From: Planctomycetota bacterium
Lineage (GTDB): Bacteria > Planctomycetota > B15-G4 > JADJEK01
Length of the DNA stretch: 19,837 nucleotides
Direction: 5' to 3'
Assembly: GCA_044225365.1 (NCBI GenBank)
Contig: JBGAIQ010000080.1
Span: forward strand, 1 to 19,837
Part shown: positions 1,423 through 19,837 of the stretch, piece by piece
Numbering within the stretch: position 1 is the stretch's first letter
How the letters are laid out: every line of letters begins with the position of its first letter
Notes under the pieces: generated by a model
Told to the model about the DNA's origin: nothing
Databases searched by the model: none
What the model saw: only the letters and a program-made list of their open reading frames with translations
Program-made: the position numbers and the translations under genes

Positions 1423-1485
1423 ACGACGTTCCGAGATAGGCGGAGCTCTCTGCCGAACGATCTCGTCGCGGAAGTACGATTCGCG

Positions 1486-2979: not shown

Positions 2980-3007
2980 GTTGGATGTCTTCCTAACGCC
3001 GAACGAA

Positions 3008-3033: not shown

Positions 3034-3071
3034 CCTTCCCGTCGCAGAAGCTGCCAGGATGGCGATCGATC

Positions 3072-3788: not shown

Positions 3789-3795
3789 CACCGAG

Positions 3796-4108: not shown

Positions 4109-4118
4109 GTGATTTACG

Positions 4119-6983
4119 TCAGGGGCCCTTCGCGACGTGGAAGATCGCGACATCGGCGCGTTCGCCCTTCAGGTACTGCGCGGCGAGGCGTCCGATCGCG
4201 TCTCTATCGGGCCGGACGTAGAACGCTCGCTCGCGCGTGTAGCGTTCGAGAGCGTGCTCGTCGTCGTAGAGCTCGGAAAGGCGATCGTGATAGGGCCGAT
4301 CCTCTTGTTCCTCGAGCATCGGCTGGGTGAGTCGATCGAGCTCTTCCCTCTCGACGCCGTCCGAAGCGAGCCGATCCGCCACCTCGAGCGTCAGCTTTGC
4401 GACGTCGTCCTCGAGGCCGGGGTCGACCTCGAAGTGGACACCGATCCATCCCCAGTTCGACAGATTGGGATCGGCGTAGACGTCGCAGGTCGGAGCGTAG
4501 GTCCAGCCCAGCCGTTCGCGCGAGGTGCGGAACAGACGATCGGCGAGCACGCGCGACAGGACCCTCGCGGCATTCAGACTCGGCTCGTCGTGGAAGAGAC
4601 TTGGGCTGGGGAAGAGGAGCTGCACCGTCGCCTTCTTGCTGCTCGTCGTCAACGTGTACTCGCGATGCAGGCCCGTCGCGAGTTCGCGATCGGTCTGATC
4701 TGCGATGTACTTCTTGTTCGATCGCTTTGGCAGCGAGCCAAACGTCGCAGTGGCGATCGCAGCGGCGTCGTTCACCTCGAAACCGCCCCAGAAGATCACC
4801 ATGAGTTTGCCGCTCGTCACCTGCGGCGCGAGCCAATTGCGCAGGCGTGCGACGTCGAACGCCGCGACGTCCGCCGGCTGCGCGATCGACTTGAAGGCGT
4901 CGTTCTTCAGAACGGCGGGTAGGAACTCCATCGTGAATCTGCCCATCGCGTCGTGCTCGAGCGACTCGAAGTAGCCCGGATAACCGCGGCGGATCGCGAG
5001 CAGCGCGGATCGCCGGAAGCCAGGGTCTTCGAGATAGGCGGCGATGAGGCGGCACTGCGAAAGGAGTTCGTCGCTCGCGCAATTACCGCCAAGGTGGAAC
5101 GAGCCGGAGTTCGTTACGAAGGACAAGTCGATATCGTGCTGCTCGAGGACGAGTCTCCAATCCGGCGCACTGTGCTTCCCGAGTCCCATCTCGACGAAGA
5201 GTCCCTCGGACAAGTTCGGCATCCAGCGCAGCTCCGCCGGCACGCTCGCTCGCCCACCGCCGAACACCGCGCGCACTTCGACGCGCCCCGAAGGCTGCGG
5301 GCGGAAGTAGACCTCCACTCCGTTCTCGAAGACGAGGTGCTCGACGGAGTCGTCGAGTTTCTCGCGCGGCGGGATCCTCCGTGGAACGTTATGGGGATGG
5401 GAATAAGCGAACTCCGTCGAATGAAGAGTGGGGGAGACCGCATCGACATCGATCTTCGTCTCGTCGAGACGCGAGGCGAGCTCCTTCGCAATCGCCTCGC
5501 GATCCCCGCGCGGCAGCGCGATCGCTGCGAGTGCGTGCCCACCGTCAAAGGCCGTTGCGACCGCCTTCGACACCTCGTCGTCGCCGAGCTTTTCGAGCAT
5601 GGGCCGAATTCGCTGCAGGCATTCGAGCGGATCGATCGCCGAGTTCAGTCCCGAAGCTGCGCCGAGCATGCACTCGCACTTCTCGCTCGAGAGTCGAGTG
5701 CGATCGTGGTCGCCATCGACTTCGAGACCATGCGCATAGATCCGCTTCGCATCCGCGATCTCGTCCCGGCTAAATCCGCGCCCGTTCACGAGCGCGATTT
5801 GTTCGATCACGCGAGAGACTGCGGCCTCCCACGACTCGGTCGCCGCCTCGATCGTGAGCCCCACGCCGGCGCGTGGCGTGACTGCGGTCGGCGACACTTC
5901 GTAGAGTTCGGCATCGAGCAGGTCCTCGGGGTACTGCTCGGGCAGCATCGCGAGTCGACGCTGCATCGCGATCCTCGCGACCGCGAGCGGAAGCCGCTTC
6001 ACCTCGTCGGCGAAGGAGCGCGGAGCGGAGTCGGTCTCCACGACGTGCTCGATGCGGATGAACGTCTTGTCGAGCCGCGGATCGATGACGACGCGCGGAC
6101 TCGCCGGGAACGAGAATCCGCGCAGGTCGGGATCCTTCGGGACTTCCTTCGCGACGGGGATCGATCCGAAGGCCTCTTCGATCGCGCGCTTCGCACCGTC
6201 TTCCAGGGCGCCGACCATCACGATCGTGAAATTCTGTGGGACGTAGTGACGCCGATAGAAGCTCGTCGCTTGCTCCAAGGTGAAGTGGTCGCGAACGCCG
6301 CGCACGCCGATCGGATGCCGCGATGCCAGTTTGCTGCCGGCGAAGAAATGTTCGTCGAACGCGTTGCGCCGCGACTCCGCGGCACTCTCTCGCGTCGCTT
6401 CCTCGGCGTTGATGACACCGCGTTCGATCTCGAGATCCTTCGCGTCGAAGCGCCCGTCGACCGCGATGTCGCGCAGTGCGTGCAGGCATTCCCGAATGAG
6501 CTTCGGATCGTTGTGATAGGCGTGCAGGACGTACGTCGTCTCGCCCCACGAAGTGAATCCGTTCAGGTCGGGGCCGAATTCCATTCCGTGCTGCTCGGCC
6601 CAGATCTTGAGCTCTCCGGCCGCGCGATTCCCCGAGTGGCGCAGTACGAGGTGCTCGATCGTGTGTGCGAGTCCGCGCTCGTCGTCCGCTTCCGACGTGG
6701 ATCCGCATCGCACGTGGAGCCAGAGGAAGACCTCGCCCGGAGGATCGCCGAACGGTCGCCATGCGAAGCGCACGCCGTTCTTCAGATGACCGAACTCGAT
6801 CGAAGGGAGAGGGCGGAGATCGGAGACCTCGTGGGGCCAGGGTCGAAGGCCGATGATCTCCTCGTCGCTCGAGGACGGGATCGTTCCGATCGCGCCGATC
6901 GTGCCAGCGGGGCCGGCAACGAGCAGGGCCAGGGCGGCGATTCGCAACGCCGCAGTTCGCGAACGACGATTCTCGAATTGCAT
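4119..6983 (-). CDS. M16 family zinc metallopeptidase (PqqL-like insulinase), secreted
   Basis: N-terminal signal peptide, GHLKNG, inverted zinc motif ERGLAHTIEH (HxxEH), DLNGFTSWGETTY, ERGVINAE, RHPIG, FYRRHYVPQN, second-half FENG and RERLGWTY; 954 aa. Confidence 0.93.
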   Translation of the reverse strand: MQFENRRSRTAALRIAALALLVAGPAGTIGAIGTIPSSSDEEIIGLRPWPHEVSDLRPLPSIEFGHLKNGVRFAWRPFGDPPGEVFLWLHVRCGSTSEADDERGLAHTIEHLVLRHSGNRAAGELKIWAEQHGMEFGPDLNGFTSWGETTYVLHAYHNDPKLIRECLHALRDIAVDGRFDAKDLEIERGVINAEEATRESAAESRRNAFDEHFFAGSKLASRHPIGVRGVRDHFTLEQATSFYRRHYVPQNFTIVMVGALEDGAKRAIEEAFGSIPVAKEVPKDPDLRGFSFPASPRVVIDPRLDKTFIRIEHVVETDSAPRSFADEVKRLPLAVARIAMQRRLAMLPEQYPEDLLDAELYEVSPTAVTPRAGVGLTIEAATESWEAAVSRVIEQIALVNGRGFSRDEIADAKRIYAHGLEVDGDHDRTRLSSEKCECMLGAASGLNSAIDPLECLQRIRPMLEKLGDDEVSKAVATAFDGGHALAAIALPRGDREAIAKELASRLDETKIDVDAVSPTLHSTEFAYSHPHNVPRRIPPREKLDDSVEHLVFENGVEVYFRPQPSGRVEVRAVFGGGRASVPAELRWMPNLSEGLFVEMGLGKHSAPDWRLVLEQHDIDLSFVTNSGSFHLGGNCASDELLSQCRLIAAYLEDPGFRRSALLAIRRGYPGYFESLEHDAMGRFTMEFLPAVLKNDAFKSIAQPADVAAFDVARLRNWLAPQVTSGKLMVIFWGGFEVNDAAAIATATFGSLPKRSNKKYIADQTDRELATGLHREYTLTTSSKKATVQLLFPSPSLFHDEPSLNAARVLSRVLADRLFRTSRERLGWTYAPTCDVYADPNLSNWGWIGVHFEVDPGLEDDVAKLTLEVADRLASDGVEREELDRLTQPMLEEQEDRPYHDRLSELYDDEHALERYTRERAFYVRPDRDAIGRLAAQYLKGERADVAIFHVAKGP

Positions 6984-7051
6984 GGCGCCCTTCCACGAAT
7001 TGCAGGTCTGCGGTTATCGTGACGGTTCCCGAGGATCCCGCAAGGGGCTCC

Positions 7052-7071
7052 GTCTCGCGATTTCGCGAGAC
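7052..7071. promoter_or_regulatory. Perfect 9-2-9 palindrome in a divergent promoter region (candidate operator)
   Basis: GTCTCGCGA-TT-TCGCGAGAC, roughly midway between the starts at 6983 (-) and 7130 (+). Confidence 0.4.
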
Positions 7072-7129
7072 ACTTCGTGACCCTGCCGGATCCAAGGATC
7101 GACTCGTTGATCCTCCAAGGAACCCATCG

Positions 7130-8389
7130 ATGAACTTCACTCTCGGTCGTAGCTCGTTCGCTGTGGCGCTCCTGTTCGGTACGACGTCGTTCGCCGCCGA
7201 GTTCAAGGCGAACGACCTGTTCGTGACGAGCACGAGCACGAATCAGGTATTCGAGTTCGATCCCGCGGGGAATCTCGTGCGGAAGATCAACACGTCCACG
7301 TTGAACTGTCCCGACCCGACCGGCCTCGCCTTCGGTCCCACGGGTACGCTCTTCGTCGCCTCGCGCACGGGCAAGCGAATCGTCGAGATCGGTTCGGATG
7401 GATCGAAAGTGAAGGAGATCGCTCTCGATCCCGCCACGTCGCAACCCGAACAGATCACCTTCGGGCCCGACGGCTACCTGTATGTCGGCTTTGGCGCTTT
7501 CAAGGGATACGAGATCCGACGCACCGACGGCCAGCAGGTCAAGCTCGTGCAAAATGCGGCTTCGACGTTCACGAACGCGATCGGCGTAGCGCTCGATGGC
7601 TCGGTGTGGACGATGGGACAGGGCACGGGAACGCTGTTGAACTGGGACAACACCGGATCGAGCCCGCGACAATATCTGCTCACGTTCCAGGGCGACACGG
7701 CCTCGGGCGGAATCGCGATCGACTCGCGCGGACGCCTCAACATCGTCTTCAACGATTCGGTTCGTCGCTACGACGGCTTCGTTTCATCCCTCGGGCAGTT
7801 CGGATCGTCTGCGCTTCTCAACTTCGACGAGAACGGGATCACCTACGGACCCGACGGGAATCCCTTCATCGCGGGCGGAGTCAGCGCCGTCGTGTACCGC
7901 TTCGATGCGAATGATGTGAAGACGAACGACATCGGCGCGGGGCAGGGAATCAACTTCGCGAGTCATGTCGCCTTCGCTCCCTATCGGTTCGCGGCGACCG
8001 TGAAGGGTCCCTTCTCCACGGACGGTGACCAGACGAAGCTCAACGAGAAGACTGCGGTATTGACCTACTTCCCCGGCAACGGGCGGAACTTCCTCACCTT
8101 CACCGATTCGGTCGCGAACTCGCAGGACTTCGCATCGCTCTTCGCCGCGAAGGACGTCGCGTTCGCCGGATTCGAGCGTTCGACGAGCAGCAAGGTCCGC
8201 TCGTACGTCGGTTCGCAGATCCCCTACGGATCCGGCACGCTCGGAACGGCATCGATCGCGCTCGAAGTGAAGGGCAAGGTGGATCCCGCGACAGGCTTCT
8301 TCGCGGTGACGAGCGCAAAGGGCGACATCCATCGCGGCAGTGGCACCGGCGTGTTCCACGCCACGGTGAAGACGACGAAGCGACTCTGA
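7130..8389 (+). CDS. Secreted NHL-repeat/Vgb-like beta-propeller protein with an unassigned C-terminal beta-rich domain
   Basis: ATG at 7130 preceded by AAGGAA; signal peptide MNFTLGRSSFAVALLFGTTSFA. Blade repeats PTGLAFGPTGTLFVAS, PEQITFGPDGYLYVG, IGVALDGSVWT, GGIAIDSRGRLNI, NGITYGPDGNPFIA. The ORF-track start at 7019 is unlikely because it buries the signal peptide. Confidence 0.82.
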   Translation: MNFTLGRSSFAVALLFGTTSFAAEFKANDLFVTSTSTNQVFEFDPAGNLVRKINTSTLNCPDPTGLAFGPTGTLFVASRTGKRIVEIGSDGSKVKEIALDPATSQPEQITFGPDGYLYVGFGAFKGYEIRRTDGQQVKLVQNAASTFTNAIGVALDGSVWTMGQGTGTLLNWDNTGSSPRQYLLTFQGDTASGGIAIDSRGRLNIVFNDSVRRYDGFVSSLGQFGSSALLNFDENGITYGPDGNPFIAGGVSAVVYRFDANDVKTNDIGAGQGINFASHVAFAPYRFAATVKGPFSTDGDQTKLNEKTAVLTYFPGNGRNFLTFTDSVANSQDFASLFAAKDVAFAGFERSTSSKVRSYVGSQIPYGSGTLGTASIALEVKGKVDPATGFFAVTSAKGDIHRGSGTGVFHATVKTTKRL

Positions 8390-8552
8390 ATCGCGCGACG
8401 CTCACACCGACGTCCGGTCGCCGGCCCTGAATCCGTGAACCCGGGCTGGCTCCATCGAGTATCCTGACGGGCGCGACCGCGTTTATCGGCGTGGTCGGTG
8501 GATCGTTATTGGTTGGCTCTCGAACGCGACGGATCCGAAGAGGAACACGGGT

Positions 8553-10151
8553 ATGCCCGGAAATGCAGCGCTGCTCATCGATCTCGAGAACTTCTACATC
8601 GGCCGCGAACAGAATCACGCGCGCTCCCACGAGAGCGATACCTACGAGTTTCCCGTCGATCTCGATTCACTGTGTTCGTTCGCGAGATCGATCGCGGGCG
8701 AGCGGCGACTGATCGTCCAGCGCGCCTACGCCAACTTCAACGATCGGCGGCCCGGCGTCGGCGAGAAGCGCTGGGACTACTATCTGCAGCCGCAGCCTCG
8801 CTACCTCATGGAGCAGGGACTCGAGCCGGTGCAGGTGTTCCGCTTCCCGGGCGGAAACAACAAGAATGCCGCCGACATGAAGATGGCGATGGATGCGACC
8901 GTGCTGCTGCAAGCGCCGTCGTCGGTCGAACTCTTCATCATCGTCACCGGCGATTCGGACTTCATTCCTCTCGTGCTCGAGTTGAAGCGCTCGGGCGCGG
9001 AGGTGTACGTCATCGGTGTCTCGCACTGCACGAAGCCGATCTTCGAGCGCTACTGCGATCGCTTCGAGTACTTCGAGGACCTGCTCGCTGCTCGTGAATT
9101 GAAGCGCGAGGATGCGACCGATCTCGATGTGGTGAGGAAGGCTCTCGCGGTCCTCGTGTCGAGGATGGCGCCGATCAAGTTCGCGGCGGTGAAGCCTCTG
9201 CTCTCCGACGAACTCGGATTCCGGTTCGATCCCACACGTCACGGCTGCGAGAGCACCGGCGATTTCTTGCGCAAGAATGCCGCATCGCTCGGCGTCCAGG
9301 TGAAGCGCGGCGATCACGACTGGGAGATCATCGGACTGCACGACGGCATCTCGCCCGCCGTCATTCCCGGCGATCCGTCCGCGACGGATTACGAAACGAA
9401 CGCGGAAGCGGTCGCCCCACGATCCGATCCGTCCGATCACGACGAGGGTCTCGACGATCAGGACGACGATGCGCACGGCGACGATTCGGATCCGCCCTCG
9501 CGTGCGCCGCGTCGTGCGAAACCGGTCCCGCGCGCGAGGGCACCTCACGAGTCGACGCCAATCGATGCTCCCAACGCGGCGGGTGCGCAGGACGTGCATA
9601 CGGCCGCGCTCTATCGTGATCTGCTTCGCCAGGGAATGCCGCGGTGCTACGTCATCGAGTACGACGACTGGAACACCATCGTCGACACCGTGTACTCGAT
9701 CGTCGCGCCCGCCGAGGATCCGGTCGACGGTCGATCGTCTCGCGACGGCGAGAAGCCGGTGCGGATCGTGCACCAGGATCTCCTCACCGAGGTCACCGAA
9801 CAGTGCATCGATCAGGGTATGGTCGATGCGAGCCGCAAGGTGCGCGACGTCTGCTTCCAGCTCTTCAAGTCGGGTTGCTTCCATTGCGCGGAGGATGGTG
9901 CGGAGCCGGGTCAGCAGGATTTCCATTGGTCGAAGAAAGCGATGCTCGATCGCTCGCTCGCGAGCGTCGACGAGATGGTGGAGCGAGCCTGGAGCTTCCT
10001 CGCGGATCTGCTCGCCCGTCGTCTCGATCAGCGCGGAAGCGCCGCCAAGGTGCAGGTCGAGGCGTTTCGCGAACTCGTCGCGGGCGGTGATCCGACCGAC
10101 GAGGACGTCGTGCTCATCGACAAGATCCTGAAGAAGCCGCGCGCGAATTGA
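8553..10151 (+). CDS. NYN domain (LabA/DUF88, PIN-like) protein with OST-HTH/LOTUS domain, acidic linker and unknown C-terminal domain
   Basis: ALLIDLEN, RAYANF, KNAADMKMAMDA, IVTGDSDFIPLV..LKRSGAEVYVIG, CDRFEYFEDL; LOTUS-like FAAVKPLL...FDPTRHGCESTGDFLR. GAGGAA ribosome-binding site before the ATG. Confidence 0.9.
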   Translation: MPGNAALLIDLENFYIGREQNHARSHESDTYEFPVDLDSLCSFARSIAGERRLIVQRAYANFNDRRPGVGEKRWDYYLQPQPRYLMEQGLEPVQVFRFPGGNNKNAADMKMAMDATVLLQAPSSVELFIIVTGDSDFIPLVLELKRSGAEVYVIGVSHCTKPIFERYCDRFEYFEDLLAARELKREDATDLDVVRKALAVLVSRMAPIKFAAVKPLLSDELGFRFDPTRHGCESTGDFLRKNAASLGVQVKRGDHDWEIIGLHDGISPAVIPGDPSATDYETNAEAVAPRSDPSDHDEGLDDQDDDAHGDDSDPPSRAPRRAKPVPRARAPHESTPIDAPNAAGAQDVHTAALYRDLLRQGMPRCYVIEYDDWNTIVDTVYSIVAPAEDPVDGRSSRDGEKPVRIVHQDLLTEVTEQCIDQGMVDASRKVRDVCFQLFKSGCFHCAEDGAEPGQQDFHWSKKAMLDRSLASVDEMVERAWSFLADLLARRLDQRGSAAKVQVEAFRELVAGGDPTDEDVVLIDKILKKPRAN

Positions 10152-10177
10152 CGCGAGAGGTCACGCCGCGTCGGTGC

Positions 10178-10462
10178 TCAAGGCTTCACGATCTTGCGCG
10201 ATTCCTTGAGGATCGTCGCGAGGATCTTCTTGAACTGCATCTTCGAGAAGCCGCGCGCATCCGTGAGGGCTCGCTTCAGGATCGCCTTCTCGCGCTTCAG
10301 ATCGATTGCGGGCAGACGATGCGCGCGCTTGATCTTGCCGATCTTCTTGGCGAGCTCGGCACGCCGCGAGAGGATCGCGATGAGCTGCGAGTCGAGGCGA
10401 TCGACGCGGTTCCGCAGATCATCCAACTTCGAGGCGATCCGTTTCTTGATCGGCTTCTTCAT
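10178..10462 (-). CDS. Monofunctional chorismate mutase, AroQ/type II (CM_2)
   Basis: LDDLRNRVDRLDSQLIAILSRRAELAKKIGKIK...DLKREKAIL...ESR carries equivalents of E. coli CM Arg11, Arg28, Lys39, Asp48, Arg51, Glu52 and Ser84; 94 aa. Confidence 0.88.
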   Translation of the reverse strand: MKKPIKKRIASKLDDLRNRVDRLDSQLIAILSRRAELAKKIGKIKRAHRLPAIDLKREKAILKRALTDARGFSKMQFKKILATILKESRKIVKP

Positions 10463-10524
10463 GCTTCAATTCACGAACTGCATCCGAGGGCGCGCGTGAC
10501 GCCGTCGGCACACGGGGCGGACCG

Positions 10525-13305
10525 ATGGAACCGATGAGCGAGATCGAAACAACCGCATTATCGGGATCGCCGCGCGGTAAGCCAGAGGTCTTGGCGCCAG
10601 CGGGCGACATGGAGTCGCTGATCGCCGCATTGCGACACGGAGCGGATGCCGTCTACTTCGGACTCGACGTCGGGTTCAACGCGCGAGCTCGCGCCGCGAA
10701 CTTCACGATCGACGATCTGAAGGACACCGTGGAGACGATCCACCTGTGCGGGGCCCGGGCGTATCTCACATTGAACACCTTGGTCTTCGAGCCCGAGCTG
10801 AAGCACGTCGCGAACGTTTTGCGCGAAGTCGCCCGCAGCGGGGTGGACGCGATCATCGTTCAAGACCCGGCGATCTGCCTCCTCGCGCAGGCGATCTGCC
10901 CCGCGCTCCACGTCCATGCCAGTACGCAGATGACGATCAGCTCCGCGCACGCCGCATCGTTCGCGAAGGAGCTCGGCGTCGTGCGCGTGGTCGTGCCGCG
11001 TGAACTCTCCGTCGCCGAGATCGCCGAGTACCAACGGGGCACGGACCTCGAGCTCGAAGTGTTCGTCCATGGCGCCTTGTGCGTGTCGTGGAGCGGGCAG
11101 TGTTTGACGTCGGAGGCCTGGAGCGGGCGTTCGGCGAATCGGGGGCAGTGCGCGCAGAGTTGTCGTTTGCCGTATTCGCTCGAGGTCGACGGAGAGCGAC
11201 GCGATCTGGGCGACGTGCGATACCTCCTTTCGCCGAGGGATCTCGCCGGGGCGCGCGCGGTGCCCGACCTCGCGCAGATCGGCGTGAAAGGGTTGAAGAT
11301 CGAAGGCCGCCAGAAGGGCAAGGTCTACGTCGCCACCGCAGCGCACGGCTATCGGCGGCTCGTCGATGGACTCCCGCGCGCGATGGAGAGCGCCGAAGGC
11401 CGTGCCGAGCTCGAACGAGGCTTTCGCGACGACCTGCGAGCGATGTCCCTCGCCTACACGCGAGGATTCTCCGATGGCTTCCTCGGCGGTTCCGATCATC
11501 AGACCCTGATCGAGGGTCGCTTCCCCAAGCACCGCGGCACGTACCTCGGCAGAGTCCTGCGGGTGGATCTCTCTCCGACCTCGACGCGTTCGGGGCCGGT
11601 CCGCGGCGGCGAGGTGTGGGTGAGTCAGGAGCGCGCTGGACGACGAGCGGACTGCTCCGGCGCGCGCGGCCTCGCGGGCGAAGAAGGGCGAAATGCGTCC
11701 CCCTTGGGCGAGACGAGCTCGCCGCTCGAGGGATTCCGTGACGCGGCGACGGCCGATCCGCGCGACAACGGGCCCGAAGCGTCACCGATCGAGCTGCGTT
11801 CAGGGATGGGCGTCGTATTCGATGCCGGCGATCCGGAGGCGAAGGACGAACCGGGCGGGCCGCTCTTCGGAGTCGATGCGAGGGAGGGCGAATGGCTGCT
11901 GCGATTCGGCAACCCCGGGCCCGACCTGAAGCGAGTCCATGTCGGCGACCGAGTCTGGGTGACGAGTGATCCGAAGCAGCAGGTCGCCGTCGACGGCGCG
12001 ATTCGCGGCGGGCCCCCGCTCGAACGGGTTCCCCTGGCGATCCGCGTCGAAGGGCGCCTTGGCGGTCCGCTGGTCGTCGACGCGAAGGTCGTTGGGTGCG
12101 AGTACGCGTGCGAGAAGATCGAAAGCGGGTCGATGCTCGAGGCCGCGCGAGGAGGAGGACTCGATTCGGCATTGCTCGCCGACAAGCTCTGCGCTCTGGG
12201 CGGAACGCATTTTCGCCTCGCGTCGCTCGAGATGGGAGCACTCGAGGGCGGACTCCATCTCCCGGTATCGGAGCTGAAGGCGATGCGACGGCGCCTCGTG
12301 GAGCGGCTCGAGGAACTCGTACGCCGCGGCGAGCCGCGCGAGATTCGCGGAGGTGATGCGATCGGAATCGTCGCGCAGTCGCTCCGCACTCGCGTGCCCG
12401 CGGGGGTCTCTCCCGATGGCGGCGCGGGCGAGGCCCGCATCGTTCCGCTCTGTCGCAACGACGAACAACTCGCCGCGGTGATCGAGGCGCGGCTTTTCGA
12501 AGTCGAGCTCGACTACATGGAACTAATTGGGCTGAAGCGCGCCGTGGAGAGAGCGCGCGCCGCGGGACTGCGAGTGACCATCGCCACGCTGCGGATCGAG
12601 AAGCCCCTCGAGGAACGGTTCTTCGATGCCGTCGCCGCGATCTCGCCCGACGGCTTGCTCGTTCGCCACTGGTCGGGGCTCGTGCGCGCTGCGTCGCTTC
12701 GAGATCCGCCGCGTCTGCACGGCGATTTCTCGTTGAACGTCACGAATTCGCTGACCGCGCTCCTCCTGCTCGGGAAGGGTCTCTGCTCGCTGACTCCGGG
12801 GTACGACCTCGACGCACATCAGCTCGAGGCCTTGCTCGACCAGGTCTCCGCCGCGCACTTCACGCTCCCCTTGTGGCACCGCGTCCCCGCGTTCCACACG
12901 GAGCACTGCGTCTACAGCCATCTCCTCTCGAACGGTCGCGATCATCGAACGTGCGGCCGCCCGTGCGAGGAGCATCGCATCACGCTCGTGAACGAGATGA
13001 GCAAGGACTCGGAGGACGCGGAGCATCCCGTCATCGTCGATGCGGGTTGCCGCAACACGGTGTTCGACGGCATGCCGCAGAGCCCCGCGAGTCTCGTTCC
13101 CGAGCTGCTTCGCCGCGGTCTCGAGCGATTCCGCGTGGAGTTCCTCCGAGAGGATCGCGACGCGACGGCGCGCATCCTGCTCGCCGCGCGGGAACTGCTC
13201 GACGGCGGGAAGACGCCGCGTGAATTCCTCGCGGCGACGGGTGCACGCGAGAGCGTCGGCGTGGGGCGCGGTCGGATGAAGTCACTCGTCGATAGTTCGC
13301 TCTGA
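10525..13305 (+). CDS. Peptidase U32 family protein, long form with DUF3656-like region (RlhA-like Fe-S RNA hydroxylase)
   Basis: PEVLAPAG, GADAVYFG, FNARARAANF, HASTQMT, ELEVFVHGALCVSWSGQC...SANRGQCAQSCRLPY (Fe-S cysteines), LLSPRDL, KIEGR, and a C-terminal HTEHC...CGRPC...GCRNTV cysteine cluster. Alternative start at 10534. Substrate is not determined by sequence alone. Confidence 0.92.
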   Translation: MEPMSEIETTALSGSPRGKPEVLAPAGDMESLIAALRHGADAVYFGLDVGFNARARAANFTIDDLKDTVETIHLCGARAYLTLNTLVFEPELKHVANVLREVARSGVDAIIVQDPAICLLAQAICPALHVHASTQMTISSAHAASFAKELGVVRVVVPRELSVAEIAEYQRGTDLELEVFVHGALCVSWSGQCLTSEAWSGRSANRGQCAQSCRLPYSLEVDGERRDLGDVRYLLSPRDLAGARAVPDLAQIGVKGLKIEGRQKGKVYVATAAHGYRRLVDGLPRAMESAEGRAELERGFRDDLRAMSLAYTRGFSDGFLGGSDHQTLIEGRFPKHRGTYLGRVLRVDLSPTSTRSGPVRGGEVWVSQERAGRRADCSGARGLAGEEGRNASPLGETSSPLEGFRDAATADPRDNGPEASPIELRSGMGVVFDAGDPEAKDEPGGPLFGVDAREGEWLLRFGNPGPDLKRVHVGDRVWVTSDPKQQVAVDGAIRGGPPLERVPLAIRVEGRLGGPLVVDAKVVGCEYACEKIESGSMLEAARGGGLDSALLADKLCALGGTHFRLASLEMGALEGGLHLPVSELKAMRRRLVERLEELVRRGEPREIRGGDAIGIVAQSLRTRVPAGVSPDGGAGEARIVPLCRNDEQLAAVIEARLFEVELDYMELIGLKRAVERARAAGLRVTIATLRIEKPLEERFFDAVAAISPDGLLVRHWSGLVRAASLRDPPRLHGDFSLNVTNSLTALLLLGKGLCSLTPGYDLDAHQLEALLDQVSAAHFTLPLWHRVPAFHTEHCVYSHLLSNGRDHRTCGRPCEEHRITLVNEMSKDSEDAEHPVIVDAGCRNTVFDGMPQSPASLVPELLRRGLERFRVEFLREDRDATARILLAARELLDGGKTPREFLAATGARESVGVGRGRMKSLVDSSL

Positions 13306-13392
13306 ACCTTCCTTTGGCCATCGTCGAGGTTCGTCTCGACAGAACGCCTCGCCGAACGCACAATCTCGGGACACGAAGCGTGGGACACTCCA

Positions 13393-13752
13393 ATGGTCGA
13401 CGTTCCCGAACTCACCGAAGCGACGCGGCGCCTGCGCGAGATCTGTCTCGAGCTGCCGGAGACGACGGAGACGCTGACGTTCAGCCATCCGACCTGGCAG
13501 GCCGCGCGCAAGACGTTCTGCGTGCTCGATCGTTATCAGGGCGTCGATTGCGTTTGCTTCAAGACCACGCTCGATCAGCAGAAGATCTTGCTGAAGGACG
13601 ACCGCTATTTCGCTGCGCCGTACGGCGGGAAGATGGGTTGGACCTGCGCCCGAATCGACGACGCGATCGACTGGAATGCCGTCGAGGAGCACGTGATCGA
13701 GAGCTGGCGCCTGTTCGCGAATCGCCGGATGCTGGCGAAGTACGAGGAGTAG
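13393..13752 (+). CDS. MmcQ/YjbR family (DUF419) putative DNA-binding protein
   Basis: RLREICLELPETTE...HPTW...KTF...CFK...RYFAAPYGGKMGW...IDWNAVEEHVIESWRL matches the family pattern; 119 aa. Confidence 0.88.
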   Translation: MVDVPELTEATRRLREICLELPETTETLTFSHPTWQAARKTFCVLDRYQGVDCVCFKTTLDQQKILLKDDRYFAAPYGGKMGWTCARIDDAIDWNAVEEHVIESWRLFANRRMLAKYEE

Positions 13753-13755
13753 CGG

Positions 13756-13893
13756 GCCGCGCTGGAGCGCGGCGGTCCCGCATAGCCGCGCTGGAGCGCG
13801 GCGGTCCCGCATAGCGCGCTGGAGCGCGGCGGTCCCGCATAGCCGCGCTGGAGCGCGGCGGTCCCGCATAGCCGCGCTAGAGCGCGGCGGTCC
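13756..13893. repeat. Tandem array of 29-bp REP-like palindromic units (4 full, 1 partial)
   Basis: Unit GCCGCGCTGGAGCGCGGCGGTCCCGCATA starts at 13756, 13785, 13814 (1-nt deletion), 13842 and 13871 (23 nt, AG loop). Each holds the inverted repeat GCCGCGCT-NG-AGCGCGGC. It fills the gap between convergent stops at 13752 and 13901. Confidence 0.93.
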
Positions 13894-13900
13894 AGGAGGA

Positions 13901-16888
13901 CTAATGCTCGCGCTGGGCGTAGCCGGGCATCTCGATCAAGGGGGCGTAGTCCACGTCCTCGTGGATCGAAGCGAAGTCCTTGAACCCGATCGCGATTGCG
14001 GCATCGAGGAGCTCGATCGCGCGCTTCTGCCATTGCGCGATCTTGGCTTCGCGATCGAGGGGTTCGTCGAGCGAGGCATGTTGTGCCGTCAGCACGAGCC
14101 GCGCGTAGACGGCAGCGCCGTTGCGGAGCGCGGTGGGCACGTCCGAGTACGTCTTCACCAATTCTTCGCCGAGCGCGATCGCGGAAGCGACGTGGCCGAG
14201 GCGCGCGTGACAGTCGGCGGTGCTGTACAGATGCAGCCGCAGGTATCGCCTGGAGACCGAATCGCCCGGAAGTCCGAGGATGGCTTGCCGCTGCTGTTCG
14301 AGAGCCTGCGAGAAGTGTTCGAGCGCGTTGCGAACGTCTCCCGCCTCCTTGTAGCAAAGGGCGAGATTGTGGAGCGCTCCACCGAATTGCCGGCGTTGCC
14401 ACGCTTCGTCCGGATGCGCGGTAACGGCTTTCCGCCAACGTTCGACCGATTCCTCCCCCCAGCGAATGGCGCCGACGTAGTCACTCCGGTTGCGATCGCT
14501 CTGGCACATCCCGTCGATGCAACGGAATAGGTCCCCAGAGATCTTCGTGTCCTCCGGGTATTGCGCCGCCAACTTGCGGGCGAGATCGAGGGCTTCGAGG
14601 AGGATGACCCGGCCCTCGTCGAAACGCTTCTCGACGTCACCGAGCAGATAGCCGAGGTTGTAGAGCGTGCGCTCCACGTCGCGCTCGTAGTCCGGCACTG
14701 CGGGGAAATCGGCGGCGAGCTTGCGCTGGATGTCGATCGCCTTGCGCAACGTGCCTTCGCCGGGGGCATCCTTGCCGAACGTGACGGAGCCCAGGTCCAT
14801 CAACACTTGGGCGTGATGGAATCGCCATTGCGGGTCGTCGGGATGGTCGTTCGACAGCTTTTCGAACTCCGTTGCTGAGGCGGCGTACTGCTTCGCGGCG
14901 TCGGCCGTCGATCCGCCCCCGCCTTCGATCGCGACTCCGAGTGCGCTGTGCGCGCGTGCGGCACGGGCTCGATGCTCGACCTGTTCGGGTTCCCTGGCGA
15001 TGAGTCCCTCCGACAACGCGATCACGTCGCGGAATCGCTTCTGCGCATCCTGGACGTCGAGCTGGATCTCGATCTCGCCGAACGCGCGAAGGCAGTCCGC
15101 GAGCTCGCCCTGTTCGGCGGCGCTCGCGTCCTTGGCACGGGCGATCGGTTCGAGCCGCTCGATCGCGGTCTTCAACTCCTTCGCGGCATCCTGCGTTCGG
15201 CCGAGGGCAACGAGGGTCGCGGCGAGTCCGCGACGGCATGCGGCGCTCTGGATCGCGACGAATCGCTCGTCGGCGGAGTCCTTTCCGAGTCGTTCGATCT
15301 CTGCGATCGCGTCGCCGTAGGATTTCTGCGCCGTCTGCGAATCGCCGAGCTGCGACTGGAGCGAGCCCACGCGCTCCATTACACGCACGGCTCCCCTGCG
15401 GACGTCGGGATCGTCGGAGTGCTCGGAGAGGAATGCGCGGTAGAACCCGAGCGCGCGCTCGACGAGCTTCCTGCGCACGGGCTCCATGTGCGGAACCTTG
15501 CGCAAGTGTTCCGATCCGACATCCGTGAGCATCGAATCGACGGCTTCGAGGGCCATGCCGAAGTTCTTCTCGGCGAGGCGACTCTTCTCCTCGATGCGTT
15601 CGCGGGCGTGACGTTCCTGCAGGTACAGGATCGCCGGGCCCGCAGTGACGACGAACGTGCCGACGACGAGAGTGCTCGCGAGCGCCGGCCTTCGCTGGCA
15701 GAACCGCTTGAAGATGAGGATCGGCCCCGCGCGTCGCGCCTGGATGGGGCGGTGTTCGAGGACGTTTCGCAGATCGCGCGCGAGATCGGCGGCGGACGCG
15801 TAACGACGAGCCGGATCGGCATCCATCGCCTTCTGGCACACCGTTTCGATCTCCCACGAGAGCGCCCGATTGCGCGCGCGCGGCGGCAGCGGATCGCCTT
15901 CCGCGATGCGCTGCAGGATCTCGTGGGCGGAATCGCCATTGAACGGAGTGAACAGCGTGAGCATCTCGTAGAGCGCGACGCCGAGCGAGTAGACATCGGA
16001 TCGTGCGTCGAGTTCGCGGTTCTTCCCCCGCGCTTGCTCCGGCGGCATGTAGTGGATCGAGCCCATCTGACTGCCGGTCTGCGTCAGCTTGTGCGTGCCC
16101 TCCGCGGCGGCGAGTCCGAAGTCGAGCAGCATCGCTCGCCCGTCCGGAGTGAGCATCACGTTCGACGGCTTGATGTCGCGATGGATCACGCCATTGCGAT
16201 GCGCGTGCTCCAAGGCGTCGGCCACCTGCACTGCGATGCGGATGCAGACTTCCTCGTACGTGCCGGGGAATACATCGATCGGCGGCAGCGCGAGCTCGAG
16301 CGAGCGAGCGATCACTTCGGCAAAGTGAGAGCCACGCAGTTTCTCGGCGATCTCGCCATGCAGCGCCTTGATGACGACGTCGAGCGAGATGCCATGCACG
16401 CGCTCCATCGCGAAGAACGGGAGGCCGTTCTCCTCGCCGACGGTGTAGATCGGGACGATGCCGGGATGCTGCAAGCGGGCGATCGTTTCGATCTCGCGCC
16501 GGAACCGCTCGTGCGTTCCGGGGAAGTACAGCATGTCGGGTCGAATCAGCTTGAGCGCGACTTCCCTTCCGAGATTGACCTGTTCGGCGAGGTAGACGAC
16601 GCCCATTCCGCCGCCGCCGAGCTGGCGCAGGAGTCGGAATTCACCGAGACGCTCGGGGAACTGCGGGGCCTCCGTTCCACTCGGCGCTTCGAGCATGCCC
16701 ATCGCGATGAGCTGGCCGATACGCTTGCGAATCTGGCTCGCGTGCTCCGGATTCTCCGCGCAGAGCATTTCGACGGCAGAGGGCCCTTTCGACTCATAGT
16801 CCTCGAGGCATCGCGCGAGGATGTCGTCGAATTCCTCGAGTCCGTTCTTGGGTTCTTTCCCGTGTTCGTTCGGAGCGTGGCCTGTCAT
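13901..16888 (-). CDS. Membrane Hanks-type Ser/Thr protein kinase with C-terminal TPR region (995 aa)
   Basis: Likely start ATG 16888 (MTGHAPNEH...). GGGGMGVVY, VALK, HRDIKPSN, DFGLA, YMPPEQ, SDVYSLG; hydrophobic helix LASTLVVGTFVVTAGPAILYL; TPR-like helices ending AIELLDAAIAIGFKDFASIHEDVDYAPL. The ORF-track extension to 18265 is an off-frame read of the neighbouring gene. Confidence 0.92.
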   Translation of the reverse strand: MTGHAPNEHGKEPKNGLEEFDDILARCLEDYESKGPSAVEMLCAENPEHASQIRKRIGQLIAMGMLEAPSGTEAPQFPERLGEFRLLRQLGGGGMGVVYLAEQVNLGREVALKLIRPDMLYFPGTHERFRREIETIARLQHPGIVPIYTVGEENGLPFFAMERVHGISLDVVIKALHGEIAEKLRGSHFAEVIARSLELALPPIDVFPGTYEEVCIRIAVQVADALEHAHRNGVIHRDIKPSNVMLTPDGRAMLLDFGLAAAEGTHKLTQTGSQMGSIHYMPPEQARGKNRELDARSDVYSLGVALYEMLTLFTPFNGDSAHEILQRIAEGDPLPPRARNRALSWEIETVCQKAMDADPARRYASAADLARDLRNVLEHRPIQARRAGPILIFKRFCQRRPALASTLVVGTFVVTAGPAILYLQERHARERIEEKSRLAEKNFGMALEAVDSMLTDVGSEHLRKVPHMEPVRRKLVERALGFYRAFLSEHSDDPDVRRGAVRVMERVGSLQSQLGDSQTAQKSYGDAIAEIERLGKDSADERFVAIQSAACRRGLAATLVALGRTQDAAKELKTAIERLEPIARAKDASAAEQGELADCLRAFGEIEIQLDVQDAQKRFRDVIALSEGLIAREPEQVEHRARAARAHSALGVAIEGGGGSTADAAKQYAASATEFEKLSNDHPDDPQWRFHHAQVLMDLGSVTFGKDAPGEGTLRKAIDIQRKLAADFPAVPDYERDVERTLYNLGYLLGDVEKRFDEGRVILLEALDLARKLAAQYPEDTKISGDLFRCIDGMCQSDRNRSDYVGAIRWGEESVERWRKAVTAHPDEAWQRRQFGGALHNLALCYKEAGDVRNALEHFSQALEQQRQAILGLPGDSVSRRYLRLHLYSTADCHARLGHVASAIALGEELVKTYSDVPTALRNGAAVYARLVLTAQHASLDEPLDREAKIAQWQKRAIELLDAAIAIGFKDFASIHEDVDYAPLIEMPGYAQREH

Positions 16889-16935
16889 CGCGGAGAAGGA
16901 TACACCCTGTTTCGATTCCTCAAAATCGAACTGCT

Positions 16936-18546
16936 TCAGTGCTTCGCCTTCGTCTCCCGATCGACGAATTCGGGCATTTGAACGAGGAATCGGAAGTCGC
17001 GATCCTGGTGCAAGGACTCGAAGTCGTGAAAGCCGAGCGCGATCGCTTCGTCCAGCGATGCGATCGCTTGCGCTTTCCACGTCGCGACCCGGCTCGCATC
17101 CTTCGAGTCGGCGAGGGCGGCGAGGGCGGCGTAGACCGCTGCCGCGTCGCGCCGCGCTTCCTTCACGTTCGCGTAGCTCGATTCCAACTCCGCGACTCCC
17201 GCGATTGCCTCGTCGACGCGTCCGAGTCGCGCGTTGCTGTCGGCGAGGCTGTAGAGGTGGAACCGCAAGTGCAGTTTCACGATGTCGTCGTTGGGCATGG
17301 CGACGAGCGCCTTGCGTTCCTCGGCGACGGCTTGGATCAGATGCGTTCGCGCGGTCTCGTAGTCCTCGAGCGTGCGTTCGACTCGAGCGAGGTCGTGCAG
17401 TGCGCCCGCGAGATCCCGATGGATGAACGCCTGCTGCGGCCGTTTCGTGAGCGAGTTCTGCCACCAAAGCACGGCTTCCTTGCTCTCCTCGAGCGCGTGC
17501 TCGTAGTCCTTGCGACGCAGGTCGAGCTGTCCCAGGGCCTGAAGGGTTCGCGCGAGGTCGTCGGCGATGTCCATATCGTCCTTGAACCGAACGACCAGCC
17601 CTCGACTCGCTTCCACGGACGCGACCATCTCCTTGCGAGCTTCCTCGAGGCGGGTGGGATCGTTCCCCATCAGCATCCCCAGATCGGACACGATGCGGGG
17701 CAGATCGCGGCGATACTCCGCGACATCGGGGAAATCCTCGACCAGTTTCTTCTCGATCTCGATCGCCCGGCGAAGATTCGACTCCCCGTCGGGACCGAGA
17801 CCGAAGGTGCTGCTTCCGAGATCCATGAGCGCGCGCGCGTGATCGAAGCGGAATCGCGGTTCGTCCGGATACTTCGTCGTGAGCGACTCGAATTCGTCGG
17901 CGGCAGCGCGGTACTCGGCGCTCGATTTGGCGATCGCGACGCCCATGATCTCGAGTGCGATTCCAATGATCTGATGCGTCTTCGCCGATCGCGCGATGTG
18001 CTCGGGCGCGCTCGGTTCGAGTTCGGCGAGTTCGTCGTACAGCGATGCGGCATCGCGCAACGTATGCTCGGATTGCTTCACGTCGAGATCGAGCTGGAGT
18101 TCGCCCAGCTTGGCAAGGCAGTCCGCGAGTTCGGATTTCTCCGCCGCGGTTCCGTCCGAGCCTCGCGCCGTCGCGTCGAGCTTGGAAATCGCGGTCGTGA
18201 GGAGCGTTGCAGCATCCTTCGCGCGACCAAGGGACATGATGCTCTTCGCGAGTCCGCGCAGGCATCGCGCGGTGTCGAGCGCAATCGGTCGACTCTCGTG
18301 ATCCTCCCTCGTGATCCGATCGAGTTCGGTGAGCGCACGGCGATAACTCGCTTCGGCGCTCTTGGGATCGCCGAGCTGGCCCTCGAGATCGCCGACGCGC
18401 TGCATCACGCGCGCGGCGCGCTTTCGAACGGAGGGATCGTCGCTGCGTTCCTCGAGGAAGCCGCGATAGAAGTCGAGCGCCTGCTGCATGAGCTTCTTGC
18501 GCACGGGCTCCATGTGCGGGATGGTGCGCAGGTGCTCGGAGCCCAC
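16936..18546 (-). CDS. TPR-repeat C-terminal part of the second kinase paralog, separated by a frameshift
   Basis: From EVGSEHLRTIPHMEPVRKKL to GFHDFESLHQDRDFRFL it is colinear with the C-terminal half of the 13901-16888 kinase. An in-frame GTG at 18546 lies 1 nt after the upstream TGA; there is an ATG at 18513. Independent translation is unproven. Confidence 0.7.
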   Translation of the reverse strand: MGSEHLRTIPHMEPVRKKLMQQALDFYRGFLEERSDDPSVRKRAARVMQRVGDLEGQLGDPKSAEASYRRALTELDRITREDHESRPIALDTARCLRGLAKSIMSLGRAKDAATLLTTAISKLDATARGSDGTAAEKSELADCLAKLGELQLDLDVKQSEHTLRDAASLYDELAELEPSAPEHIARSAKTHQIIGIALEIMGVAIAKSSAEYRAAADEFESLTTKYPDEPRFRFDHARALMDLGSSTFGLGPDGESNLRRAIEIEKKLVEDFPDVAEYRRDLPRIVSDLGMLMGNDPTRLEEARKEMVASVEASRGLVVRFKDDMDIADDLARTLQALGQLDLRRKDYEHALEESKEAVLWWQNSLTKRPQQAFIHRDLAGALHDLARVERTLEDYETARTHLIQAVAEERKALVAMPNDDIVKLHLRFHLYSLADSNARLGRVDEAIAGVAELESSYANVKEARRDAAAVYAALAALADSKDASRVATWKAQAIASLDEAIALGFHDFESLHQDRDFRFLVQMPEFVDRETKAKH

Positions 18547-18547
18547 T

Positions 18548-19837
18548 TCAGTTCTTGTCGGCGATCTCCTTCTCGTTCTCGATGCGCTTCCTCGCATGGC
18601 GCTCCTGGAAGTAGAGCGCGGCGGGACCGACGGTGAGGAGGATCGAGCCGAGGACGAGACCGGTGGCGAGGGCGGGCTTGCGCTGGCAGAAGCGCGTGAA
18701 CTTGACGATGGGACCCGCACGCCGGGCGCGGATCGGATGGTGCTCGACGACGTTTCGCAGGTCGGTCGCGAGTTCGGCCGCGTTCCAGTATCGCCGTGAA
18801 GGATCGACCTCCATCGCCTTGAGACAGACGGTCTCGGCATCCTGCGAGATGGCGCGATTGCGCTCGCGCGGCGGGAGCGGATTGCCCTGGCCGATGCGCA
18901 GCAGGATCTCGTGGGTGGAATCGCCGCTGAACGGTGTGAACAGCGTGAACAGCTCGTAGAGCGTGACGCCGAGCGAGTAGACGTCGGTCCTTGCGTTGGG
19001 CTCCTGCGACTCGCCGCGCGCGTGCTCGGGCGGCATGTAGTGGACGGAGCCGAGCTGGCTTCCGGTGCGCGTCAAGCGATGGCTGCCCTCGCGGGCGGCG
19101 AGACCGAAGTCGAGTAGCATCGCGCGCCCATCGGGAGTGAGCATGATGTTCGAGGGCTTGATGTCGCGATGGACGACGCCGTGGCGATGGGCGTGGTCGA
19201 GCGCGAGCGCGATCTGCTCGCCGATGCGCAGGCAGGCGTCCTCGTACGAGCCGCGGAAGATCTCCGGGAGCGGCGCGTCCGGATTCGGTGCGATGGAGAG
19301 CGCGGTGTTCACCGCCGTCGCGATGTCGGAACCGCGCAATCGTTCGACGACCTTGGAATGCAGGCTGCGAACGATCACGTCGAGGGAGACGCCCTTCACG
19401 CGTTCCATCGCGAAGTACGGGATGCCGTTCTCTTCGCCGACGGTGTAGATCGGGACGATGCCGGGATGCTGGAGGCGCGCGATCGATTCGAACTCGCGAC
19501 GGAAGCGCTCGTGCGCACCTGGGAAGTAGAGCATGTCGGGGCGGATGAGCTTGAGCGCGACCTCGCGATCGAGCTTGTCCTGCTTCGCGAGATAGACGAC
19601 GCCCATGCCGCCGCCGCCGAGTTGACCGATGAGACGGAACTCGCCGAGCCGATCGGGGAAGGCGCCGGGCGCCGCGCCCTTGCCGGCTCCGAGCACGCCG
19701 ATCGCGATCAGCTCACCGATGCGCTTGCGGATGCGCGTGGCATGGGTCGGGTGCTCGGCGCAGATCGCCTCGACGGCGGTCGGCCCCTTCGATTCGTACT
19801 CGTCGAGACAGCGGACGAAGATGTCCTCGAAGTCGTT
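18548..19837 (-). CDS. Ser/Thr protein kinase domain plus TM helix (N-terminal part of the second paralog; start outside the window)
   Basis: Frame is open from the window end (NDFEDIFVRCLDEYESKGPTAVEAICAEHPTHATRIRKRIGEL...). GGGGMGVVY, VALK, HRDIKPSN, DFGLA, YMPPEH, TDVYSLG, TM LATGLVLGSILLTVGPAALYF, then a stop after IADKN. Confidence 0.88.
   Translation of the reverse strand, partial: NDFEDIFVRCLDEYESKGPTAVEAICAEHPTHATRIRKRIGELIAIGVLGAGKGAAPGAFPDRLGEFRLIGQLGGGGMGVVYLAKQDKLDREVALKLIRPDMLYFPGAHERFRREFESIARLQHPGIVPIYTVGEENGIPYFAMERVKGVSLDVIVRSLHSKVVERLRGSDIATAVNTALSIAPNPDAPLPEIFRGSYEDACLRIGEQIALALDHAHRHGVVHRDIKPSNIMLTPDGRAMLLDFGLAAREGSHRLTRTGSQLGSVHYMPPEHARGESQEPNARTDVYSLGVTLYELFTLFTPFSGDSTHEILLRIGQGNPLPPRERNRAISQDAETVCLKAMEVDPSRRYWNAAELATDLRNVVEHHPIRARRAGPIVKFTRFCQRKPALATGLVLGSILLTVGPAALYFQERHARKRIENEKEIADKN

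Follow-up and report, generated by a model that had tools for sequence, protein, structure and literature searches.

A chorismate mutase gene adjoining a long-form RlhA-type U32 gene in a Planctomycetota genome: a probable two-gene cassette for prephenate-dependent hydroxylation

Locus and gene products

The window analyzed here is a stretch of 19,837 nucleotides of a Planctomycetota bacterium (assembly GCA_044225365.1, contig JBGAIQ010000080.1, positions 1 to 19,837 of the forward strand). A stand-alone chorismate mutase (CM) gene and a long gene of the U32 family diverge in it from a gap of only 62 bp. This arrangement had been noticed in a first-pass annotation made from the letters of the DNA, and both open reading frames (ORFs) and the gap lie where that annotation had placed them, with Pfam CM_2 and Peptidase_U32 matches in the respective products. 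Judged from the sequences of both proteins and from the gene content of related genomes, it is probable that the mutase and the long-form RlhA-type protein constitute a two-gene hydroxylation cassette, in which the mutase feeds prephenate to the hydroxylase. The features of the locus are as follows.

10178-10462, minus strand: chorismate mutase, stand-alone AroQ (type II), 94 amino acids (ORF and Pfam CM_2)
10463-10524, no strand: divergent intergenic gap of 62 bp, which would hold both promoters (read from the sequence)
10525-13305, plus strand: long-form RlhA-type U32 protein, 926 amino acids (ORF, Pfam Peptidase_U32 and DUF3656)
10801-11499, plus strand: N-terminal Peptidase_U32 domain, residues 93-325 (Pfam, E 6e-74)
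11080-11163, plus strand: first four-cysteine site, C186, C193, C209, C213, CX6CX15CX3C (orthologue alignment)
11953-12318, plus strand: DUF3656 (PF12392), marker of the RlhA subfamily, residues 477-598 (Pfam, E 2e-14)
12445-13302, plus strand: C-terminal second, degenerate U32-like domain, RlhA2-like, residues 641-926 (weak Pfam match and profile-profile comparison)
12907-13050, plus strand: second four-cysteine site, C795, C810, C814, C842 (orthologue alignment)

The divergent gap is also short in relatives of the same family, with about 50-100 bp as estimated from tblastn and ORF positions, and would fit a joint control of both genes. A scan of positions 10100-10700 for the sigma-70 consensus gave 0 sites, this consensus being uninformative for the phylum Planctomycetota.

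By its domain composition the U32 protein is assigned to the long-form RlhA type, which consists of a U32 domain, DUF3656 and a second, degenerate U32 domain. The first-pass annotation had left open where the protein belongs among RlhA, TrhP and UbiU/V. Subfamily placement was done by blastp against these four E. coli paralogues and by the presence of DUF3656, and both point to RlhA: residues 1-340 match RlhA with 193 bits and 40.7% identity, TrhP with 152, UbiU with 123 and UbiV with 25 bits, and DUF3656 is reported as exclusive to the subfamily of RlhA (Kimura et al., 2017, PMC5727448). According to the same passages, the C-terminus of about half of the RlhA1 proteins bears another U32 motif (Kimura et al., 2017). 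The N-terminal Peptidase_U32 domain (PF01136) was found at identical coordinates by a genome-wide profile search, and the profile search of the contigs also revealed that the gene is the sole U32 gene of the genome. The second domain is more diverged, as residues 641-926 match Pfam Peptidase_U32 with E 0.0088, which is below the cut-off. When the N- and C-terminal domains were compared profile to profile on the basis of a 46-sequence alignment, the probability was 86% with E 5e-6 over 238 columns, and the proteins of relatives contain a second U32 match in the same frame with E 1e-6 to 1e-16. A sequence search of the PDB with the U32 protein gave 0 matches, i.e., no solved homologue could be found by sequence.

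Both four-cysteine sites are invariant in the window U32 protein and in 75 of 75 full-length orthologues. C186, C193, C209, and C213 align with C169, C176, C192, and C196 of E. coli RlhA, in which the conserved cysteines of the U32 motif are critical, and in the profile-profile comparison C795, C810, and C814 of the C-terminal domain are matched to C193, C209, and C213 of the N-terminal domain. Since the protein has two U32 domains and two invariant four-cysteine sites, it can be described as a single-chain tandem U32 protein with two presumptive Fe-S sites. Between the first U32 domain and DUF3656 there is an insert rich in Gly, Ser, Pro, and Arg (window 11560-11845, residues ~345-440), which is poorly conserved and absent from E. 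coli RlhA.

The 94-amino acid ORF consists of a CM_2 domain alone (E 7e-17, 61.8 bits compared to a gathering cut-off of 27) and is fused neither to prephenate dehydratase (PDT) nor to prephenate dehydrogenase (PDH) or DAHP synthase. When 13 RlhA-linked mutases are aligned, R17, D21, R34, K45, D54, R57, and E58 do not vary. We take the active site of the CM domain of E. coli PheA (EcCM) to be formed by R11, R28, K39, D48, R51, E52, S84, and Q88. Equivalents of seven of these eight residues are found in the window mutase; those of R11, R28, K39, D48, R51, and E52 are invariant in the 13 linked homologues, and S84 is also kept. Moreover, the closest solved chains found by a PDB sequence search are all chorismate mutases. 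The protein is taken to be an active mutase, with a caveat regarding the NCBIfam cut-offs that is considered below.

The pairing recurs in orthologous loci

A search for orthologous loci matched 599 stretches, of which 574 were confirmed as relatives, and the best 80 loci (46-59% identity) were analyzed. Mutases were sought with a hidden Markov model iterated from the window mutase in fetched flanks of up to 4 kb, which were complete on both sides in 47 of the 80 loci. In 39 of the 80 loci, among them 28 of the 47 with full flanks, a CM domain was found at most 4 kb from the U32 gene, and the two genes occur in three orders.

Mutase upstream, divergent: 9 of 80 loci; 5 of 47 loci with full flanks
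Mutase downstream, same strand: 25 of 80 loci; 20 of 47 loci with full flanks
Mutase downstream, opposite strand: 5 of 80 loci; 3 of 47 loci with full flanks

The nine upstream-divergent loci (L013, L016, L024, L033, L039, L040, L052, L060, L068) all belong to Planctomycetota or Planctomycetia records, and the mutase is at most about 150 bp away in seven of them and 1.4 kb (L039) and 2.5 kb (L060) upstream in the other two. Of the 25 loci with the mutase downstream on the same strand, 17 have a small mutase gene starting at most about 320 bp after the U32 stop codon, and in the remaining eight the mutase domain is C-terminal in a larger protein (about 350-420 amino acids), the N-terminal part of which is prephenate dehydrogenase-like according to the translations and to PDH_N matches in the same frames. 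The five loci with the opposite orientation are from Myxococcus and contain the PDH-CM fusion as well. In the Myxococcaceae loci (L005, L011, L012, L014, L017, and others) a fusion with PDH at the N-terminus and CM at the C-terminus adjoins rlhA, its strand depending on the genus; the domain order is the reverse of that of E. coli TyrA. In L044, L057, and L073, long ORFs that seemed to fuse U32 and mutase were rejected, as they read through GC-rich DNA out of frame; the actual mutase gene of these loci is small and separate.

A tblastn comparison with 11 loci of the same arrangement matched only the mutase and the U32 gene, and none of the genes flanking them in the window. In a FastTree phylogeny of 74 long RlhA proteins rooted with E. 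coli RlhA, all mutase-linked RlhA proteins fall into one clade of 69 members with a support of 97; within it, the upstream-divergent type is a basal grade. When the gene arrangement is traced as a label on this tree, it needs 12 changes compared to 37.4 in shuffles. The branch of the window U32 protein is long and its exact place in the tree is unsure.

The first-pass annotation had warned that a single adjacency could be due to chance. This concern no longer holds, since there is only one CM_2 gene in the 6.53 Mb of the host genome and yet a CM domain is found near U32 in 39 of 80 loci of other genomes, which is far beyond chance. The survey of gene neighbourhoods that the annotation had proposed thus reveals the pairing in these 39 loci and, as described below, in 13 genomes of a phylum-wide sample from seven families.

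The host genome makes chorismate and contains no recognizable phenylalanine/tyrosine branch

The host assembly comprises 6.53 Mb in 103 contigs with a completeness of 94.3% and a contamination of 0.03. Profile searches of its contigs gave one CM_2 match, which is the window mutase, and 0 matches each for CM_1, for PDT, and for PDH (PDH_N). For CmoA (TIGR00740), another enzyme that uses prephenate, the best match in the host genome reached 23 bits compared to a cut-off of 193. One chorismate synthase is present and exceeds its NCBIfam cut-off, and there is one chorismate-binding enzyme, which is of the PabB/TrpE type. The searches of the host genome found no isochorismate synthase over the cut-off and 0 matches for indole-glycerol-phosphate synthase (IGPS). 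From this gene content the organism is predicted to make chorismate, and the U32 protein is the only prephenate-using enzyme that can be recognized in it.

The first-pass annotation had held that a sole mutase in the genome would speak against a dedicated supply of prephenate, and the search for a separate one indeed found none. The criterion assumed that Phe/Tyr synthesis takes place, and this part of the argument did not stand: as PDT and PDH could both not be found, the sole mutase cannot feed phenylalanine or tyrosine synthesis via the known enzymes, so that its being the only one supports the supply idea. The same searches for PDT and PDH match in 13-14 of 14 control genomes.

Distribution in the order and in the phylum

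The order of the window (in the collection used, its class) is represented by 41 genomes including that of the window, which contain the relevant families as follows.

Chorismate synthase: 38 of 41 genomes
CM_2: 11 of 41 genomes
CM_1: 0 of 41 genomes
PDT: 3 of 41 genomes
PDH_N: 8 of 41 genomes, 6 of them over the cut-off
U32: 16 of 41 genomes

With chorismate synthase in 38, CM in 11, PDT in three and PDH in eight of the 41 genomes, and with IGPS also not found in the host, this pattern suggests a widespread auxotrophy for aromatic amino acids in the order, in which the shikimate trunk would be kept for other products. An unfused mutase together with neither PDT nor PDH is present in four genomes of the order (the host, G000, and G005, G010, and G011), and all four contain a long RlhA. 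Mutase and RlhA are divergent neighbours in three of them (G000, G005, G010), and in G011 they are on separate small contigs. The seven mutases of the order outside this group are fused to or located beside PDH or PDT; G006, for example, has a CM-PDH fusion that adjoins an aminotransferase gene.

A sample of 251 genomes of the phylum with a completeness of at least 85% contains CM_2 in 170, DUF3656 in 92, and PDT in 146 genomes. In the cross-tabulation 140 genomes have both CM and PDT, 30 have CM without PDT, and six have PDT without CM. DUF3656 is found in 17 of the 30 genomes with CM and without PDT, and in 13 of these 17 (G000, G005, G010, G083, G086, G131, G177, G179, G213, G223, G229, G249, G255), which belong to seven families, the mutase lies on the same contig at most about 3 kb from DUF3656. 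None of the 13 contains PDT, and PDH_N over the cut-off is found in 0 of 13, with matches below threshold in two of them (24.2 and 20.7 bits). Among the matches listed, no adjacency of mutase and DUF3656 was found in the 65 genomes that have CM, PDT, and DUF3656. The mutase of such genomes is located in a frame of about 360-400 amino acids (longer in some families) beside PDT, i.e., it is of the PheA type.

The same relation is apparent in the genomes behind the 80 orthologous loci, which were compared in three groups and to which the completeness filter of the phylum sample does not apply.

Small mutase directly downstream (17 genomes): PDT in 2 of 17 (G281, G294); PDH_N over the cut-off in 0 of 17, with 7 below threshold
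PDH-CM fusion: PDT in 11 of 11; PDH_N over the cut-off in 5 of 5 tested
No nearby mutase: PDT in 13 of 18, among them G315; PDH_N over the cut-off in 7 of 10 tested

Stand-alone mutases also occur in other contexts of the phylum. In two genomes with neither PDT nor DUF3656 the gene is part of a CM-DAHP synthase-PDH-EPSP synthase operon (G079) or lies just upstream of the PDH and EPSP synthase genes (G104), and in G049 it lies beside non-ribosomal peptide synthetase (NRPS) and Pnkp/Hen1 genes. In the PDT-positive genomes G139 and G230 a stand-alone mutase gene was found beside secDF. Lone mutases of the phylum adjoin a plausible prephenate consumer wherever their surroundings are readable. The stretch of G049 (L112, G049:C1:7429500-7439800) comprises 10 kb with 35% G+C, on which a Hen1-Pnkp RNA-repair pair and a 94-amino acid chorismate mutase are encoded and a large NRPS gene begins. 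Its appearance is that of an acquired island, and its mutase may serve a natural-product pathway. Furthermore, six genomes of the phylum (G046, G068, G151, G167, G253, G269) have PDT but no CM_2, from which it appears that an unrecognized type of mutase may exist in the phylum.

Proposed working of the cassette

Published passages on RlhA, TrhP, and UbiU/V state that the functions of these proteins genetically require prephenate, and prephenate is described as the oxygen donor for UbiU/V (PMC10990095). The chemistry proposed in these passages is a decarboxylation of prephenate that releases hydroxide, with phenylpyruvate as by-product. According to these sources, it is from E. coli genetics and from isotope tracing with UbiU/V that U32 hydroxylases are known to need prephenate, and direct catalysis by any U32 protein is reported as not yet demonstrated.

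By analogy, the AroQ mutase of the window would turn chorismate, for which a chorismate synthase is present, into prephenate, and the tandem-U32 Fe-S protein would use prephenate as oxygen donor for an O2-independent hydroxylation. Each of the two four-cysteine sites, one per U32 domain, would hold a [4Fe-4S] cluster. The likeliest target would be C2501 of the 23S rRNA during assembly of the 50S subunit, with phenylpyruvate and CO2 as by-products; catalysis by both proteins and the rRNA target are inferred. As the usual prephenate-consuming enzymes are not found in the host genome, the mutase would not be an enzyme of Phe/Tyr biosynthesis here and would be kept only for supplying the co-substrate of the hydroxylase. 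This is what the first-pass annotation had suggested, and the recurrence of the pair and the missing PDT and PDH now support it. In genomes with fused mutases of the PheA/TyrA type, prephenate would be available anyway, and no dedicated mutase was seen beside rlhA there among the matches listed.

Points against the cassette and alternative explanations

Several observations weigh against a dedicated supply of prephenate by the mutase. No mutase was found near the U32 gene in 41 of the 80 orthologous loci, or in 19 of the 47 with full flanks, and none of the seven Corallococcus loci has one within the fetched flanks. CM_2 is missing in 10 of the 92 DUF3656-positive genomes of the phylum sample, and in four genomes that have CM and DUF3656 but no PDT (G125, G168, G183, G236) the two genes are on different contigs or far apart. 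G281 and G294 combine the downstream arrangement of the mutase with a PDT. As for the mutase itself, the position of E. coli Q88 is occupied by V in the window protein and by V or A in its relatives, and all NCBIfam equivalog cut-offs for chorismate mutases are missed, the best of the 22 models listed being TIGR01808 with 49 compared to 52.15. The absences are based on draft genomes and Pfam models, which a non-homologous dehydratase, e.g., a periplasmic one of the PheC type, would escape. The cross-tabulation of the phylum sample was compiled by hand from listed rows, covering 150 of the 193 CM matches with four genomes re-queried, and related genomes are not independent observations.

A further point comes from a sister family in the order, in which six genomes (G014, G017, G020, G026, G029, G033) have strong U32 and DUF3656-type matches and are mutase-less: neither CM_2 nor CM_1 nor PDT was found in them. 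There is also no aromatic-pathway gene next to rlhA at their loci (L088 of G020, L089 of G017, L090 of G026, L091 of G014, L098 of G033, L099 of G029), and the neighbours vary between the genera. The RlhA proteins of G017, G020, G026, and G033 form a separate basal clade with 42-44% identity to the window U32 protein. The hydroxylase can hence exist without a recognizable mutase gene and the pairing is not obligatory. Chorismate rearranges to prephenate also without catalysis, and the mutase-less RlhA proteins could possibly be supplied by this uncatalyzed reaction, by a mutase that escapes recognition or by a different donor.

Among the alternatives, the one that survives best accepts the coupling to the mutase as real, but assumes for the tandem U32 protein a substrate other than C2501 of the 23S rRNA, which could be a base in tRNA, a precursor of quinones or a small molecule. 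The U32 protein reaches no NCBIfam equivalog (199.9 compared to a cut-off of 534 for TrhP, 170.3 compared to 440 for UbiU, and 44.5 compared to 275 for UbiV), it resembles E. coli RlhA (about 36-41% identity) only over the N-terminal ~380 residues, and neither the second U32 domain nor the variable insert has a counterpart in E. coli RlhA, all of which leaves room for another target. On the other hand, RlhA is the best E. coli paralogue, the protein is the only U32 protein of the genome, and no quinone, ubiT-like or tRNA-modification gene was found adjoining its gene among the scanned large ORFs of the window; in addition, the RlhA-specific DUF3656 and the second U32 motif of about half of the RlhA1 proteins fit an RlhA identity (Kimura et al., 2017, PMC5727448). 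A target other than rRNA is accordingly considered rather unlikely.

It is less likely still that the mutase is a housekeeping enzyme of Phe/Tyr synthesis, the downstream enzymes of which are missing from the draft or not recognized, and that its adjacency to rlhA is an inherited accident. Such an explanation could draw on the window mutase being the only one of the genome, on the 103 contigs and 94.3% completeness of the draft, on the six phylum genomes with PDT and without CM_2, which show that some aromatic enzymes escape the models, and on the Myxococcaceae, where the rlhA-linked mutase is fused to PDH and the genomes also contain PDT. However, PDT and PDH are both missing in all 13 paired genomes from seven families, compared to a presence of PDT in 146 of the 251 genomes of the phylum sample, and they are both missing in 15 of the 17 genomes with the downstream arrangement. 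Both searches match in nearly all or all of the control genomes, and the pairing persists across three gene orders while the flanks change, and a housekeeping function is considered improbable.

The pair could also turn over prephenate freely to phenylpyruvate and thus be a non-orthologous replacement of PheA, which would explain in another way why the adjacency is seen only in genomes without a dehydratase. This is very improbable, as close relatives without the pair are also without a dehydratase and are seemingly auxotrophs. Finally, a role of the 94-amino acid protein as another enzyme of the AroQ fold, such as an isochorismate-pyruvate lyase, or as a non-catalytic partner has hardly any probability, since the missed NCBIfam cut-offs, a weak match to isochorismate lyase (27 compared to 126 bits) and the unconserved Q88 position are outweighed by six invariant residues of active-site type in 13 linked homologues, by closest solved relatives that are chorismate mutases only, and by a genome with a single chorismate-binding enzyme of the PabB/TrpE type and no isochorismate synthase over the cut-off.

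Neighbouring genes in the window

The first-pass annotation had seen no other aromatic amino acid gene in the window, which agrees with the domain searches, as none of the other large ORFs scanned contains an aromatic-pathway domain. The scanned neighbours encode a phosphodiesterase, GltX, an M16 peptidase, a beta-propeller protein, an NYN-domain protein and two Ser/Thr kinases, and an Rfam scan of the whole window gave 0 matches. The NYN-domain protein (8553-10151, plus strand, 532 amino acids) has its RNase-like NYN domain at the N-terminus, and its gene is convergent with the mutase gene and ends 26 bp from the mutase stop codon; a counterpart beside the mutase/U32 pair is absent in 11 related loci according to tblastn. 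Downstream of the U32 gene, at a distance of 87 bp and on the same strand, there is a YjbR-family gene (13393-13752, plus strand, 119 amino acids, Pfam E 2e-11) with a G+C content at third codon positions (GC3) of 0.86. Two further ORFs in this region, 13282-13869 (minus strand) and 13314-13814 (plus strand), were rejected as genes and are probably non-coding, with GC3 values of 0.62 and 0.50 compared to about 0.8 in neighbouring genes. Two genes for Ser/Thr protein kinases follow at 13901-18265 (minus strand) and 18548-19837 (minus strand), the first of which encodes a protein of 1454 amino acids with tetratricopeptide repeats.

Significance

Neither searches of the open full-text literature nor passages of PMC5727448, PMC6599085, PMC10990095, and PMC11574389 yielded a description of U32 and mutase genes being linked. 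What is new here is that this adjacency goes together with a loss of the enzymes of the Phe/Tyr branches; further additions are the sister clade without a mutase and the pair of invariant cysteine sites in the tandem U32 protein. The data support that the pairing joins members of two known families, one of hydroxylases and one of mutases, as a dedicated two-gene cassette, in which case one branch of aromatic amino acid synthesis would be kept purely as cofactor supply for RNA modification. Evolution here serves as an independent test: lineages without the Phe/Tyr branches keep the mutase only beside an RlhA-type gene or another prephenate user, and this retention pattern argues that prephenate is the true co-substrate of the hydroxylase well outside the proteobacteria. 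For in vitro reconstitution, nature here offers a set of two proteins, the mutase and the single-chain tandem U32 protein, which carries both cluster sites. For genome annotation it follows that prototrophy for Phe and Tyr should not be read from a lone mutase if the genome has neither PDT nor PDH.

Comparison with known systems

The window mutase resembles the solved AroQ mutases that match it best, namely that of Pyrococcus furiosus (1YBZ), the intracellular enzymes of Mycobacterium tuberculosis and Corynebacterium (2QBV, 5MPV, 6YGT), and EcCM of PheA (1ECM), in being an all-helical CM_2 domain of about 90 amino acids that keeps the Arg/Lys/Asp/Arg/Glu equivalents of the active site. It differs from them in having V (V or A in its relatives) instead of Q88, in remaining below the NCBIfam cut-offs, in its lack of any link to DAHP synthase, PDT or PDH, and in being encoded by a genome in which PDT and PDH are not found.

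The U32 protein shares with E. coli RlhA (YdcP), its best E. coli paralogue and the synthase of 5-hydroxycytidine at C2501 of the 23S rRNA, the order of U32 domain and DUF3656 and the aligned cysteines of the U32 motif. E. coli RlhA has 653 amino acids compared to 926 of the window protein, and it has neither the second U32 domain nor the variable insert, whereas the window U32 protein has both. Furthermore, E. coli rlhA has no aromatic neighbour and prephenate comes from PheA/TyrA, whereas the U32 gene of the window adjoins the mutase gene. The window protein agrees with the long forms RlhA1 plus RlhA2a/b (Kimura et al., 2017, PMC5727448) in its additional, C-terminal U32 motif.

UbiU-UbiV, which hydroxylate ubiquinone independently of O2, and TrhP1-TrhP2 of Bacillus subtilis, TrhP being the hydroxylase of tRNA U34, are likewise pairs of diverged U32 Fe-S subunits with a four-cysteine cluster site each. 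They consist of separate subunits, whereas the window protein has both modules in one chain with DUF3656 between them, so that it would correspond to either heterodimer, UbiU-UbiV or TrhP1-TrhP2, fused into a single chain.

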